Virus genome (UHGV): UHGV-0349119
Reading direction: 5' to 3' (one strand)
DNA length: 16,624 nt
Source of the DNA: a virus
Positions 1-16,624 of this stretch are shown here, piece by piece. The notes under the pieces are model-generated. The model did not search any database. It had not been told where the DNA came from and saw only the letters and a program-made list of their open reading frames with translations. Position 1 is the stretch's first letter; each line of letters starts with the position of its first letter. Made by a program: the position numbers and the translations under genes.

Positions 1-117
1 CGTTACGCACCACCCCGTCAGTAGCTGAACAGGAGGGACAGCTGATAGAAACAGAAGCCACTGGAGCACCTCAAAAACACCATCATACACTAAATCAGTA
101 AGTTGGCAGCATCACCC
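1..117. other. p15A-replicon-like plasmid/vector backbone segment (reverse orientation)
   Basis: Reverse complement of nt 1-117 reads GGGTGATGCTGCCAACTTACTGATTTAGTGTATGATGGTGTTTTTGAGGTGCTCCAGTGGCTTCTGTTTCTATCAGCTGTCCCTCCTGTTCAGCTACTGACGGGGTGGTGCGTAACG. I recognise this from memory as the sequence just upstream of the p15A origin in pACYC184-family plasmids. Similarity stops at 117/118. Confidence 0.55.
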
Positions 118-227: not shown

Positions 228-302
228 TGAAAAGAGGCTAACTTGTATTAGCTCAAACTTGATCTTACACTTTTACTGCATAGGGCTTAACCTAAGCTGA
301 CA

Positions 303-326
303 GTCCGCTCTGTGCCAGAAGCGGAC
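303..326. promoter_or_regulatory. perfect inverted repeat GTCCGCT-N10-AGCGGAC upstream of ORF 549-1601
   Basis: 7-bp arms at 303-309 and 320-326 are exact reverse complements; overlaps the repeated 20-nt motif at 310-329. Confidence 0.5.
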
Positions 327-329
327 GTT
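310..329 (+). repeat. 20-nt motif CTGTGCCAGAAGCGGACGTT (copy 1 of 2)
   Basis: 18/20 identical to 3122-3141 (CTGTGTCAGAAGCGGACATT). Its last 10 nt are the reverse complement of AACGTCCGCT at 4311-4320. Confidence 0.6.
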
Positions 330-400
330 AGCCATAGTGAATAATGCACAATGCAGTGACTGGATACAGATATGGGAAACTATTACTTTTAAAGTCCGAC

Positions 401-431
401 ATTCTTGATTCTTGATTCTTGATTCTTGATT
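401..431. repeat. tandem heptamer repeat (ATTCTTG) x 4.4
   Basis: Four exact ATTCTTG units at 401-428 followed by partial ATT; about 120 nt upstream of the ORF at 549. Confidence 0.9.
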
Positions 432-440
432 ACTTAATCT
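412..440 (+). promoter_or_regulatory. weak candidate sigma70 promoter (TTGATT, 17-nt spacer, TAATCT) embedded in the heptamer array
   Basis: -35-like TTGATT at 412-417 is one of the repeat units; -10-like TAATCT at 435-440. Both hexamers are weak matches; by-eye only. Confidence 0.2.
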
Positions 441-548
441 AAGTAACCGTGCATTTTTATCCAGCTTCAACTATCCAATGAACCAGTATGTTCTGTAACA
501 TAAAAGCAGGCTATTTAGCCCACAATCAATTGATAATTAGGCACTTAT

Positions 549-1601
549 ATGAAACTAAAAAAAATGCTTGAAATGGATTTCATCAAGGAGTTTCAAGAGC
601 ACCTAGAAACTGACTTTGAGCATGAACTCTTACATGCCAGTCTTCGCAACTATTGTTCTCATGGTAATCCTCTGCGCTTCAACAACTTTGCATTTGCAAT
701 ACGTGAGCTAATAAATCATGTGCTGAAACGACTGGCACCAAATGACAGAGTTATGGCGTCTCCATGGTTCACTAAAAACAAAAATAACGCCACTGTTACC
801 CGTAAACAGCAAGCAAAATACATCGCCCAGAAGCATATACCCGATCAACTTCTTGATGATGTAGCTATCGAAAGACTAGATGATGGTATAGCATGGTTCA
901 ATAAAAACTATTCTTCTTTAAACGATTACACCCATATTAGCGAACATTCATTTGATAGTAACCCCAAACAGTTTTTTGAGAGTGCTAAACTAATAATAGA
1001 ACTGTGTAACATAATATTCGATACCTTCGATGAACTTGAGCGTGTTATTACCGAATCAATAATCGAGGAAGTACAGAATGAAGTTACTGACATCACAATG
1101 AATAATATCCCTGACGAACTGGATATATTATCTTCACAAACAACTGTTGATTGGTGCAATGTTGAATCCATTGAGTTGCTGAACCTTGACGAAAATTATA
1201 TTTATCTTTTGGTGCGCGGAATAGTTGAAATTACTAGGCAATACGGGCGTGGTGAGGATTACTTTGCACAGCAAGATTCTTATCCCTTCAAGTTTGCAGT
1301 CTCTATTCGCACTGATAATTTCAATTTAATAGCACCATTACTTAACACTGTAGTAGTGGATACAGGCTCATGGTATGACGATGGCGAAGGATCTGCTCAT
1401 TATGACACAATTTATACAACCTCCAGATTTTTGGAGATGATCTCACATATAAAAATTAAACCAAAAACAAAGAGAAGATTGTTTCCTGAGCTTAGTACAG
1501 TAGTAACACTAGGGATTCATGAAAGTGAAGGTATATCAGAATCGGTCGTCCCAGAAATATGTCATCTAAATCAAGGAAGCTTCAATTTAACTGAATTTTA
1601 G
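549..1601 (+). CDS. hypothetical acidic protein, 350 aa (candidate system gene A); no recognised domain
   Basis: Long ORF in AT-rich DNA, followed 16 nt later by the next ORF (operon-like). No Walker A motif. No clear Shine-Dalgarno at 549; in-frame ATGs at codons 5 and 9 are alternative starts. Confidence 0.6.
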   Translation: MKLKKMLEMDFIKEFQEHLETDFEHELLHASLRNYCSHGNPLRFNNFAFAIRELINHVLKRLAPNDRVMASPWFTKNKNNATVTRKQQAKYIAQKHIPDQLLDDVAIERLDDGIAWFNKNYSSLNDYTHISEHSFDSNPKQFFESAKLIIELCNIIFDTFDELERVITESIIEEVQNEVTDITMNNIPDELDILSSQTTVDWCNVESIELLNLDENYIYLLVRGIVEITRQYGRGEDYFAQQDSYPFKFAVSIRTDNFNLIAPLLNTVVVDTGSWYDDGEGSAHYDTIYTTSRFLEMISHIKIKPKTKRRLFPELSTVVTLGIHESEGISESVVPEICHLNQGSFNLTEF

Positions 1602-1617
1602 GATTATCTATGGAGAG

Positions 1618-3018
1618 ATGAAAATGTCTAATAAGATCTATAGCCTACAAAGAATGCCTACTGAAGCATTTAAGATATTTGCAATGTCATTGCCACATGG
1701 GCCTAATTATGGTAATGCGGAATTACTTTCCGCTTGGTCAAATGAAAAAGGGCTTGGATATGGTGCAGTCCTTCAATACAGCAAAAATTCATATGGCCTT
1801 GTTGTGCTCAGGCGACGGGAAGATTATGTGCTGGTACCTCTCGAGCATGAGATGTGTTTTACCGAGCAGGAGGCATTGGTGCATCTTGATAAGCACCTTT
1901 CAGCCGGAGGAGATTTATTACCGATTCCATCTGGGCAATCACGTAGAGCCCGACTGGATCATGTTGGTGAGCGGAATGTTTGTCAGGCATTTATACAATT
2001 ATCGTCCACGATAAAGTACCGAGGAGCATTTCATTTAATTGTCGAGCTCTATCTGGCATTACCAAAACCTGATGATAACTTCAGAACCGATCTCCAGACC
2101 CAAGGATTCAACTCTAGAATCTGGGAGCTATACCTTTTCGCATGTTTTAAAGAGCAGGGAATTAAAGTTTTTCAAGATTATCCATCTCCGGATTTTATGC
2201 TCATGAACGGTAATAACAAAGCATATGTTGAGGCGGTCACCGCGAATCCAACTGGTCCGGGCAGCCTAAAGTTGCCTCAAACACAATTCCCCCCCGGAGA
2301 TCGATTAGCTCGCACAGCAGGTGATATGGCAGCACGGTTCGCTAAGACCATCAGATCTAAACTCCAGAGAAAGTATGAAGAACTACCGCATGTTAAAGGA
2401 TTTCCATTTGCAATCGCTATAGCGGATTTTAGCGGTGGGGGCACTATGGTCTGGTCTCGCGAGTCACTTCCAACCTATTTGTATGGGCAAACCGCACATA
2501 CAGTCAAAACATCCAAAGGTATGAAGGCTGCTGCATTATCAATTGAAAAGCTTTTAGGCCATGTAAATATTCCGGCAGGACTATTTAACCACCCAGAGAT
2601 TGAAAATTTATCTGCTATCTTGTTTAGTAATGCTGGAACATTGCCAAAATTCCAGCGAATGGCAATCCAAGCTGAATTTTCCTCACCTATTGTGAAAGCC
2701 CGCAGGGTTGGGATTTTATTTGATAGGACTGAAGGGGCCTTGGAACCAATTGACTTCGATCTAGATATTCAATCGCCTGAATATATTAATCTTTGCGATG
2801 GCAAAGAATTTTGGTGTTTTGAACTTGAAGTATTTCATAACCCTAATGCTGCTTATCCAATGTCCCATGATTTCCTGCCGGGGGCAACACATTGGTTTGA
2901 ACACAATGGAGAGATCATCTGTGAGACCCAATGGAAAAACCAGGTACTTGCATCAGTAACCGAGTTTAGTATTGTTCCAGATGTCGCCGATAAACTCAAA
3001 GCCAAGGAAAAGCCGTGA
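1618..3018 (+). CDS. hypothetical protein, 466 aa (candidate system gene B); possible degenerate PD-(D/E)xK-like core
   Basis: GGAGAG at 1612-1617 is well spaced for the ATG at 1624 (the 1618 ATG is in frame). Residues E170, PD191-192 and E205 (WELYLFA...SPDFMLMNGNNKAYVEAVT) loosely resemble a nuclease core but lack the canonical Lys. No NTPase motif. Confidence 0.65.
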   Translation: MKMSNKIYSLQRMPTEAFKIFAMSLPHGPNYGNAELLSAWSNEKGLGYGAVLQYSKNSYGLVVLRRREDYVLVPLEHEMCFTEQEALVHLDKHLSAGGDLLPIPSGQSRRARLDHVGERNVCQAFIQLSSTIKYRGAFHLIVELYLALPKPDDNFRTDLQTQGFNSRIWELYLFACFKEQGIKVFQDYPSPDFMLMNGNNKAYVEAVTANPTGPGSLKLPQTQFPPGDRLARTAGDMAARFAKTIRSKLQRKYEELPHVKGFPFAIAIADFSGGGTMVWSRESLPTYLYGQTAHTVKTSKGMKAAALSIEKLLGHVNIPAGLFNHPEIENLSAILFSNAGTLPKFQRMAIQAEFSSPIVKARRVGILFDRTEGALEPIDFDLDIQSPEYINLCDGKEFWCFELEVFHNPNAAYPMSHDFLPGATHWFEHNGEIICETQWKNQVLASVTEFSIVPDVADKLKAKEKP

Positions 3019-3102
3019 TTGCTTGATGCAAGCATATTCTTGAAAGAAGAAAATTGACAAGATTTAAAACTAATAATGAAGGGGGGAATGTTACGAGGTT
3101 GT

Positions 3103-3124
3103 CAGGGCTGCAACAGCAGCCCTG
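3103..3124 (+). promoter_or_regulatory. stable hairpin (9-bp stem CAGGGCTGC/GCAGCCCTG, loop AACA) 85 nt after the ORF-B stop
   Basis: Exact reverse-complement arms seen directly. No immediate T-tract, so not a classic intrinsic terminator; could be an attenuator, RNA-stability element or protein-binding site. Confidence 0.35.
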
Positions 3125-3141
3125 TGTCAGAAGCGGACATT
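3122..3141 (+). repeat. 20-nt motif CTGTGTCAGAAGCGGACATT (copy 2 of 2), about 55 nt upstream of ORF 3195
   Basis: 18/20 identity to 310-329. Confidence 0.6.
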
Positions 3142-3194
3142 TTAAGCATTCGAGTGTAAGGTCTGTTTTTTAATTTGTAATTTTAGGAGGTAAC

Positions 3195-4148
3195 ATGCCA
3201 AAGAAAAGACGGTCTATTAGCCAGGTAAAAGAAGACATTTCAATCAGGGTTCTGCGGGAAAAACTACCTCGCGAATGGGTCGTACATAGCTATGGCGCTG
3301 ACTATGGTATTGATTGCGTTGTTGAATTATTTGATTTTATTGATGACAGTGAAAGTATTGCAGAAACCCTTGGTGAAAACTTCTTTGTACAACTAAAATC
3401 TTCAGATTGTATTGAATATTGTACACGTAAAGCCTATGCTCGTGGAAATGTAACCAAAGGAAAGTTAACAGAAGATAAAAGCGATTTTGTCGAAATCCCT
3501 GTCGCAAAATTCAAGTTAGATATATCAGACATTTTGACTGTTCAGTCTATAGGTATTGCAATTCCAGTATTATTGATACTAGTTGACACTAATACAGAAA
3601 AGGCATTTTTTATTTGCCTTAATGATTACATAGATAAAGTTCTCATACCAGAAGACCCGAATTATTCTAAAAAAGACTCAAAGACTATATATATACCTCT
3701 TGAAAATGAAATTCTGGATGATGAAGATGCGCTTGTTCCATTACGTGCATATGGTAAAAGATCAAAAATGTATGGCGCATTCTCACTTTTTAACTATCAA
3801 TTAAAAGAAATAAACCGATTACAAGGTAAAGCGGCCGTACAATTTCCTGTCTCTTTCGATGAAGCTATAGAGATGGTAAATAACTTTATTGTAATTGCTC
3901 TTAGACAAGATATATGGTCTGGTCATGAATTTTGGAAGCCGATGGTATCGAGCCAAAAGGAGTTGATCCAACTTCAAATAGATATTGATAAAGAGGTAAA
4001 ACCTGAACATTATGAACATTTTTTGAGTTACTGTTCCGAAGTGGTTTGGCATAAGTTAACAAATCTTTCAAATATGTATGAGGAGCTTGTTAGAGAATGG
4101 TTCATGCCAACCTTGCTAGCGACATTAACATCAGCCCGCCCTAAATAA
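3195..4148 (+). CDS. hypothetical protein, 317 aa, with N-terminal Mrr/DUF4365-like PD-(D/E)xK nuclease-fold motif (candidate system gene C)
   Basis: Strong RBS AGGAGG 4 nt before the ATG. N-terminal GADYGIDCVVEL...FFVQLK (D36/D40, E44, Q66-x-K68) matches the D...E...QxK pattern I recall for DUF4365 and Mrr-like restriction folds. Domain call is from memory. Confidence 0.7.
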   Translation: MPKKRRSISQVKEDISIRVLREKLPREWVVHSYGADYGIDCVVELFDFIDDSESIAETLGENFFVQLKSSDCIEYCTRKAYARGNVTKGKLTEDKSDFVEIPVAKFKLDISDILTVQSIGIAIPVLLILVDTNTEKAFFICLNDYIDKVLIPEDPNYSKKDSKTIYIPLENEILDDEDALVPLRAYGKRSKMYGAFSLFNYQLKEINRLQGKAAVQFPVSFDEAIEMVNNFIVIALRQDIWSGHEFWKPMVSSQKELIQLQIDIDKEVKPEHYEHFLSYCSEVVWHKLTNLSNMYEELVREWFMPTLLATLTSARPK

Positions 4149-4196
4149 TAATAGCAATGCTACGCAAAAGCATCCTAGCCCTAAATTCTTAAATAA

Positions 4197-4223
4197 GGGC
4201 TTCATATCAAATTGAAGCCTTTG
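4197..4223. terminator. candidate stem-loop between convergent genes (GGCTTCA, 8-nt loop, TGAAGCC, then TTTG)
   Basis: 7-bp exact inverted repeat at 4198-4204 and 4213-4219 with a short T-run; lies about 50 nt past the ORF-C stop. May serve both convergent transcripts. Confidence 0.3.
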
Positions 4224-4408
4224 TGAACAATAGAAACAACACTAAAAGACACCCCTATCACATTTAGTTGAATAGAAAAATAATAATGCGCCCACGACGA
4301 TACAATTACTAACGTCCGCTCCTCGCTCAAAGCAGACTGTCAGATTTGATTGCATTTTGCCTACGCAAACTGTCAGTTCGAGCCTGAGCTAATACAGCTA
4401 ACTGGATG

Positions 4409-6596: not shown

Positions 6597-6684
6597 TTCT
6601 GTCTGATTCCTAACGAACTGTGGCAATATTGTGGCAAAAAATCCATTTAAATTCGATAGGTATTGATTTTACAAGATCAATTTA

Positions 6685-6733
6685 CGCATTCGTAATGCGA
6701 AGGTCGTAGGTTCGACTCCTATTATCGGCACCA
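6685..6733 (+). tRNA. thrW: 3' fragment (anticodon stem to CCA, about 49 nt) of tRNA-Thr(CGU); att core repeat, not an intact gene
   Basis: CGCATTCGTAATGCGAAGGTCGTAGGTTCGACTCCTATTATCGGCACCA carries the anticodon loop with CGT, the T-arm GGTTCGACTCC and the acceptor 3' end plus CCA. The preceding sequence (aagatcaattta) is not a tRNA 5' half. thrW is the att site of P22/SfV-type phages. Confidence 0.75.
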
Positions 6734-16320: not shown

Positions 16321-16624
16321 ATGCATCGTATAGACACGAAAACCGCGCAGAAGGATAAGTTCGGCGCGGGTAAGAACGGTTTTACCCGTGGTAACCCCCA
16401 GACCGGCACGCCTGCCACCGATCTGGATGATGACTACTTTGACATGTTGCAGGAAGAGCTTTGTGGCGTGGTGGAGGCATCCGGTGCCAGCCTGGAGAAG
16501 GGGCGGCATGACCAGCTGCTTACCGCGCTTCGTGCGCTGCTGTTAAGCCGCAAGAATCCGTTTGGCGATATCAAATCGGATGGCACCGTGAAAACGGCTC
16601 TCGAAAACCTTGGTTTGGGAGAAG
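16321..16624 (+). CDS. side tail fibre protein, N-terminal part (runs off the window end)
   Basis: ATG at 16321 with a GGAG RBS, not in the supplied ORF track because it has no stop in the window. [47 protein letters not shown]... is a conserved enterobacterial prophage tail-fibre N-terminus as I recall it. Confidence 0.75.

Follow-up and report, generated by a model that had tools for sequence, protein, structure and literature searches.

A Copy-Number-Variable Heptamer Array at the Candidate Promoter of a Mobile Three-Gene Nuclease Cassette

Enterobacteriaceae are usually thought to be sparing users of repeat-based contingency. A perfect array of 7-nt repeats upstream of a nuclease operon, found in the 16,624-nt stretch of DNA analyzed here (hereafter the window), raises the question of whether repeat copy number controls the operon and, if it does, whether it acts as an ON/OFF switch or as a graded element. 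The array is a simple-sequence repeat that is hypermutable, and it lies in the cassette-borne regulatory region of a mobile three-gene nuclease cassette, which is probably anti-phage.

Sequence, Copy-Number Variation, and Origin of the Array

Tandem Repeats Finder describes the array as (ATTCTTG)x4.4 with a period of 7, 100% matches, no indels, and a score of 62, and a pattern of three heptamer units, allowing up to two mismatches, is absent from the rest of the window and from all of 200 dinucleotide-preserving shuffles. The array is the sole repeat in the 16.6-kb window with a unit of 4–9 nt and at least three copies; other enterobacterial loci, covering approximately 80 kb, yielded no repeats of this kind except the same array in related cassettes. 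As a perfect tandem short repeat, it has the basic form of a simple-sequence-repeat contingency locus. The hexamer TTGATT is read at every unit junction (405–410, 412–417, 419–424, and 426–431), and the gap between the end of the array at 431 and the ATG of ORF-A at 549 is 117 nt. The initial annotation of this DNA had placed an (ATTCTTG)x4.4 array at 401–431, about 120 nt upstream of ORF-A, with a −35-like TTGATT in each unit; the repeat-finder and shuffle results and the measured distance agree with this description, and one of the hexamers forms the top-scoring promoter candidate upstream of ORF-A (see below). A scan of 185,579 species genomes for (ATTCTTG)3 returned at least 120 unrelated arrays from many phyla, mostly in metagenome-assembled genomes; such arrays also occur in Helicobacter and in Xenorhabdus, where their contexts differ from that of the cassette.

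Copy number was compared among approximately 27 cassette-carrying loci from E. coli, Klebsiella variicola, another Enterobacteriaceae background, and one IMG/VR viral contig. Every locus with an identical ORF-A or with the exact flanks carries the array, the flanks being identical and the array lengths different. An identical ORF-A is present in roughly 971 public assembly blocks. The loci hold three (L009, L013, L018, L139, L140, L141, and L163), four (the window, with L001 being the same locus, L003, L010, L011, L142, and L157–159), five (L004, L008, L015, and L017), six (L002, with L014 being the same locus, L005, L006, L007, and L012), or seven copies (L016). A metagenome scan with a pattern of the flank plus two copies found four loci only, with three, three, three, and four copies. 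Apart from the array, the cassettes differ by 0–4 SNPs over the shared 4 kb (at least 99.9% identity). The haplotype with 3161A only is found with five, six, and seven copies on identical 4 kb, and the haplotype with 1834A and 3161A is found with four and five, its one-SNP derivative L140 having three.

Parsimony requires at least ~6 copy-number events versus ~14 point substitutions in 4,000 bp, and the mutability of the array locus is at least ~1,700 times the per-base rate, a lower bound that may still fall well below the mutability of classical contingency loci. Gain and loss of complete 7-nt units in the array far outpace point mutation, and the array shares with contingency loci a copy number that varies among near-identical genomes faster than point mutation. 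Assembly error is an unlikely source of the length differences, since arrays of 21–49 bp sit well inside read length. The initial annotation had described a slipped-strand-prone repeat and had suggested a comparison of copy number across related strains; the finding of three to seven copies in cassettes otherwise at least 99.9% identical supports that description. None of the ~27 array-bearing loci has fewer than three copies, a floor that could be a sampling effect or could reflect the stickiness of short arrays. No preference for a helical phase is seen among the loci, all phases (three, four, five, six, and seven copies) being present.

The outgroup cassette L143, in which ORF-A has 94.7% nucleotide identity and the upstream region is homologous, has at the array position only ATTCTTGATT followed by AGATTG, a degenerate remnant that may be either a proto-repeat or a decayed repeat. 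The sister lineage L157–159 (ORF-A 97.5% and upstream region 93% identical at the nucleotide level) has four perfect copies, and its 401–450 segment is unchanged, with flanks differing at 7–8% of sites. The repeats are absent from the distant ORF-A homologues of Rahnella (83%), of Serratia and Klebsiella (67–77%), and of one P2-like prophage; distant homologues, including those of Klebsiella pneumoniae, share at most the last 60–75 bp before the ATG and are otherwise unrelated upstream. Since L143 has a remnant only, L157–159 have perfect copies, and distant homologues are without repeats, the array is a lineage-specific expansion that has been kept since, and not a conserved feature of the ORF-A gene family. 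On this comparison, a sequence of ~1.4 copies expanded in an ancestor shared by the lineages of E. coli, Klebsiella, and Enterobacter, and the array has been perfect ever since; it is perfect, with at least three copies, in lineages that differ by ~7% in the non-coding DNA around it.

The Mobile Cassette, Its Island, and Its Cargo

The array lies within a discrete, self-contained cassette (~303–4328; Table 1) that is at least 99.9% identical in a wholly different K. variicola chromosomal context, and the term "cargo operon" used in the initial annotation is a fair one for a unit so conserved in unrelated chromosomal contexts. A third Enterobacteriaceae context and one IMG/VR viral contig hold slightly diverged copies of the cassette. 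The hairpin motifs at its edges, which have the consensus GTCCGCT-N10-AGC(G/A)GAC and inverted CTGACAG and CTGTCAG flanks, are the points at which homology to other genomic contexts begins and ends. Positions 4308–4377 match a P2-phage variable-region boundary annotated as "right inverted repeat," and variants of the hairpin motif are present upstream of the 67% Klebsiella homologue and in L157 and L163. The edge motifs are possibly a recombination or insertion signal for the cassette. Variants of the motif also lie ahead of cargo, homologous or otherwise, in Klebsiella, Enterobacter-type, and viral-contig loci.

Positions 117 to ~302 are the backbone of an integrative island, in relatives of which traJ, trbJ, and trbL lie upstream. 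Downstream of the cassette, on the other strand, are a VbhA-family antitoxin gene, a hypothetical gene, an integrase gene, and a tRNA-like attachment site. The slot that holds the cassette is bounded by a small hypothetical gene that follows trbL and by the gene for the VbhA-family antitoxin. Another strain, E. coli CT282, has a Shedu (SduA) gene in this slot (L162 4265–5485; ~228–4408 in the window), which is therefore an exchangeable hotspot for defense cargo.

Several further features of the island were observed. The IS1 copy interrupts the small hypothetical gene that precedes the cassette, a gene that PSS-13 and other strains have in intact form; trbL has an IS1 copy on either side in strain TUM10008 (L001 128–825 and 2364–3061), and ORF-B is truncated by another IS1 in strain ES3. 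RefSeq annotates a 112-nt "tRNA-Ser" at 6622–6733 beside the integrase. ARAGORN found no tRNA anywhere in the window, the Rfam tRNA model is sub-threshold at 6659–6726 (22.3 bits, threshold 29), and the segment is probably a degenerate tRNA or attachment-site remnant. Beyond the tRNA-like site, at 6748–16624, are another integrase gene and, from ~9796, a long series of ORFs in the same orientation that look like phage structural genes.

With respect to the cargo, the match of ORF-B to the PADLOC profile for PD-T7-1 covers profile positions 114–447 of 452, with the N-terminal ~113 residues unmatched, and indicates that ORF-B is homologous to the PD-T7-1 defense protein. ORF-B is a member of a large, widespread uncharacterized family, the alignment of which has an invariant aspartate (D190) and glutamate (E203) in the context ...PSPDF...IEAVTAN..., which looks PD-(D/E)xK-like. 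The possibility that ORF-B is a hidden Argonaute was ruled out by PDB sequence search, an AlphaFold model, and Foldseek: the model, a confident one (pLDDT 89.7), has no Argonaute or other PDB match at E ≤ 0.001, the best having E = 0.14. DUF4365, the domain of ORF-C, is described as a nuclease domain in short-pAgo partner proteins (PMC10810196). No PIWI- or MID-domain protein is present in the operon, where ORF-A and ORF-C hold only pAgo-associated nuclease domains. Because ORF-B has neither a Pfam hit nor an Argonaute fold match, the cassette is not an Argonaute system, despite the name of ORF-A. The cassette thus places two Argonaute-associated domains, pP_pnuc (ORF-A) and DUF4365 (ORF-C), beside a PD-T7-1-like protein without a PIWI protein; homologues of ORF-A are also found by themselves, within P2-like prophage hotspots of Serratia and as lone genes in Klebsiella. 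The cassette is AT-rich (30%–44% GC).

Table 1. Positions of the Cassette Features and Neighboring Elements in the Window
Feature	Position	Strand	Basis and remarks
IS1 end	1–116		IS1 copy inserted in island backbone; outside cassette
Hairpin motif GTCCGCT-N10-AGCGGAC	303–326	+	Left edge of shared cassette
Perfect heptamer array (ATTCTTG)x4.4	401–431	+	Tandem Repeats Finder, shuffles, copy counts; 3–7 copies in related loci
Predicted −35 hexamer TTGATT	412–417	+	Position-weight matrix; one of four junction hexamers (405, 412, 419, 426)
Perfect inverted repeat TTACTTA-ATC-TAAGTAA	430–446		Read from sequence; overlaps predicted −10
Predicted −10 hexamer TAATCT	435–440	+	Position-weight matrix; 17 nt from −35; kept in L143, L157, and L163
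Dyad GGCT-ATTT-AGCC	509–520		Alignment; shared by upstream regions of ORF-A homologues with identities as low as 83%
10-bp palindrome ATCAATTGAT	525–534		Alignment; directly before ribosome-binding site
ORF-A	549–1601	+	350 aa; pP_pnuc_1 and pP_pnuc_2 ("pPIWI-associating nuclease"); PADLOC Aga_Nuclease, 1.4e-58; RefSeq annotation
ORF-B	1624–3018	+	464 aa; no Pfam domain; PADLOC PD-T7-1 (PDLC04073), E = 3.8e-83; PD-T7-5, 3.7e-38
ORF-C	3195–4148	+	317 aa; DUF4365 nuclease domain
Second, direct copy of hairpin motif (1 mismatch)	4314–4337	+	Right edge of shared cassette

Candidate Promoter and Predicted Effects of Copy Number

Because the cassette, array included, sits in at least four unrelated contexts (E. 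coli, K. variicola, and other Enterobacteriaceae), it must, on this comparative evidence, carry its own promoter. A simple sigma-70 position-weight matrix (PWM) of our own was applied to alleles with 0–10 copies. The top candidate within 300 bp upstream of ORF-A is TTGATT(412–417)-17 nt-TAATCT(435–440), whose score of 10.3 (next best, 7.6) is reached by 15% of random 300-bp windows and whose −10 hexamer matches the consensus at three of six positions; it predicts a start site at ~447 and a 5′UTR of ~100 nt. A built-in promoter scan found no promoter within the array. The combination TTGATT-17-TAATCT exists only with at least three copies, the smallest number observed, and the equivalent site in L143 has a PWM score of 5.6. 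With five or more copies, the PWM scan yields extra, weaker TTGATT-17-GATTCT sites.

Since the array is periodic, with the −35 hexamer inside and the −10 hexamer outside it, neither the −35/−10 spacing nor the distance to the ATG varies with copy number once three copies are present. The proposal in the initial annotation that a 7-nt unit changes promoter spacing is therefore not supported for the candidate core promoter, TTGATT always being 17 nt from TAATCT at three or more copies, and what stands of its proposed slipped-strand switch is the slippage (three to seven copies). The array, at 21–49 bp, is too long for a −35/−10 spacer. The repeats of ON/OFF contingency loci lie in an ORF or between the −35 and −10 elements; here the plus strand of the array has a stop in every frame, and the array overlaps or precedes the predicted −35. 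Copy number does shift the distal upstream sequence, including an A/T-rich block at 381–394, by 240° of helical phase per unit, and it alters the count of competing −35-like hexamers and the length of the AT-rich tract. Because only distal distance and phase, extra hexamers, and AT-rich tract length change, the predicted effect of copy number is graded tuning and not an ON/OFF spacer switch.

We infer a regulatory effect in which the array supplies the −35 element of the promoter and acts as a graded tuning element, the most likely of the readings considered, although we hold it at about even odds. The TTGATT unit junctions would provide the −35 of TTGATT-17 nt-TAATCT, with a start near 447; three copies would be the minimum that places TTGATT at the right distance, and beyond three the core promoter would be unchanged. 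With each added unit, the A/T-rich block at 381–394 would move seven bases farther upstream, and there would be one more weak TTGATT-17-GATTCT site and one more AT-rich unit open to nucleoid proteins. In that case copy number, being heritable and reversible, would work as a volume control on a nuclease operon that is potentially costly, as opposed to an ON/OFF spacer switch, and a higher copy number would most likely mean lower expression. More tentatively, the array may be a de novo evolved promoter element and heritable tuning knob for an anti-phage nuclease cassette that moves between E. coli, Klebsiella, and Enterobacter; in this fuller and, taken as a whole, rather doubtful scenario, growth from ~1.4 to at least three copies would have created the −35 box, and later slippage would dial a costly defense up or down.

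Other candidate elements lie between the array and ORF-A. The 430–446 inverted repeat, a putative operator-like dyad or small hairpin, abuts the array, is identical in the L157 lineage, differs by two transitions in L143, and is the sole stable element of the centroid RNA fold. The 509–520 dyad reads GGGCT-N4-AGCCC in L143 and L144. The half-site TTGAT of the 525–534 palindrome recurs at each repeat junction, and the palindrome is mutated to ATTAATTGAT in the L157 lineage. Because the upstream segment most conserved in distant homologues is the last 60–75 bp before the ATG, which contains the 509–520 dyad and the palindrome, and not the array, essential control elements may lie in that segment. 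In the E. coli lineage of the window, a SNP at position 536 changes GATACT to GATAAT, which is the better −10-like hexamer and lies 12 nt upstream of the ATG; GATACT is present in the three-copy Klebsiella haplotype (L009/L013/L018) and in L143, L144, L155, L157, and L163, and GATAAT is a possible second or alternative promoter element.

Known Repeat-Controlled Systems and Alternative Readings

The closest analogues of the array are the heptad repeats of Vibrio cholerae ctxAB, the nearest of all, and the heptamers of Haemophilus influenzae hmw; both are graded controls. On the CTX prophage, ctxAB has 3–8 perfect TTTTGAT heptads, variable between strains, of which at least three are needed; activity drops 5.9-fold from three to eight copies, a drop for which the authors propose H-NS binding to the distal repeats as the cause, and the proximal repeats lie in the core promoter region, which has two ToxT-binding toxboxes (bioRxiv 10.1101/2021.05.14.444153). 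As at ctxAB, the array consists of perfect 7-nt tandem repeats in the candidate promoter of a mobile-element operon, with strain-variable copies in AT-rich DNA, and the two units differ at one base when rotated (TTGATTT in ctx, TTGATTC here). In contrast, ctx has another host and other cargo, it depends on ToxT/ToxR, which are missing in E. coli and Klebsiella, and its homology to the array is limited to the short unit.

The heptamers of H. influenzae hmw1A and hmw2A (ATCTTTC) lie ~100 bp upstream, with expression inverse to their length; these arrays, of 11–38 copies, are transcribed and act via a long 5′UTR hairpin cut by RNase III (PMC2651432; PMC12721329). The array is similar in having a 7-nt repeat ~100 bp before the start codon with strain-variable copies (hmw copy number also varies within strains and grades expression), but the hmw arrays are much longer, are transcribed, and form an RNase III-cut hairpin of a kind that is not predicted here. 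At Neisseria meningitidis nadA, a TAAA repeat upstream of the core promoter is described as re-spacing distal elements and not the −35/−10 spacer (PMC2791445). The array is alike in lying upstream of the core promoter with a length that shifts distal elements, whereas the nadA unit is a tetranucleotide and depends on NadR operators flanking the tract, with no equivalent operators or repressor identified here. Heptanucleotide slipped-strand variation on acquired DNA in E. coli has a precedent in neuO on the CUS-3 prophage of E. coli K1 (PMC9659370); unlike the array, which is non-coding, the neuO repeats lie in the coding region and cause a translational frameshift. In anatomy and polymorphism, the array resembles the ctx/hmw class, being a strain-polymorphic 7-nt array ~100 bp upstream of a start codon.

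The main rival to the tuning-element reading is that the array is a neutral variable-number repeat, a chance microsatellite in AT-rich acquired DNA that hitch-hikes without effect on expression and is of use only as a strain-typing marker. This is possible, although on balance unlikely. The broad copy-number spectrum with no favored phase is what such a repeat would show; the promoter prediction is statistically weak, the cassette encodes no regulator, and L143 and the distant homologues have an intact ORF-A (L143 also an intact ORF-B) without the array. A neutral repeat, however, would have to lie where the cassette's own promoter must be and hold the best −35 candidate there, and would have to have stayed perfect and never below three copies across lineages with ~7% flanking non-coding divergence; at ctxAB and hmw, an almost identical arrangement is functional. 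We consider it improbable that the array acts chiefly as a protein-binding array, with AT-rich units (TTGAT half-sites) that recruit a nucleoid or transcription factor, e.g. H-NS, such that more units give stronger silencing and the −35 is secondary. A global AT-binding protein such as H-NS on the array, as at ctxAB, is possible by analogy: the 30%–44% GC of the cassette is typical of H-NS-silenced acquired DNA, and the rotated unit TTGATTC is identical at 6/7 positions to the ctx TTGATTT, whose distal copies are proposed to be H-NS-bound. The perfect 430–446 dyad abutting the array and the recurrence of TTGAT in the conserved palindrome could likewise point to binding, but a coincidence of a 5-mer counts for little, the L157 lineage keeps the array with a mutated palindrome, and a 7-bp period does not put the sites on one helical face.

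It is very unlikely that the array acts post-transcriptionally, through RNA structure or processing, after transcription from a promoter upstream of position 400. The hmw1A heptamers are part of a 5′UTR (PMC12721329), a weak upstream candidate promoter is available (TGGATA-17-TACTTT, 361–389, PWM score 7.6), and both L143 substitutions in the 430–446 stem are wobble-compatible on the plus strand; against these, the RNA fold of 395–575 is no better than that of shuffled sequence (z = 0.65), the array is essentially unpaired, with no complementary purine-rich arm with which to form a stable long hairpin of the hmw type, and the leader has no Rfam family match at the gathering threshold or at E ≤ 1. 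A frameshift switch for a small minus-strand gene can practically be dismissed, even though the array is open in all three minus-strand frames and a 65-aa ORF (470..273) that crosses it varies in length from 24 to 72 aa with copy number. This ORF was rejected: it has a TTG start that lacks a convincing ribosome-binding site, natural alleles fall freely into all three frame classes, and it is unannotated in every RefSeq record examined.

To our knowledge, and according to a literature search, no repeat-length rheostat on a defense-system promoter has been reported in Enterobacteriaceae. If copy number tunes the operon, as the graded-tuning reading proposes, the locus would represent a mobile defense cassette with built-in, mutation-driven expression control. 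Such control would help to explain how the cost of nuclease immunity is balanced against phage pressure, and would extend repeat-based control to the defense islands of E. coli and Klebsiella, where it is rarely considered. Even if neutral, the array would provide a clean, fast-evolving marker of the spread of the cassette between genera.
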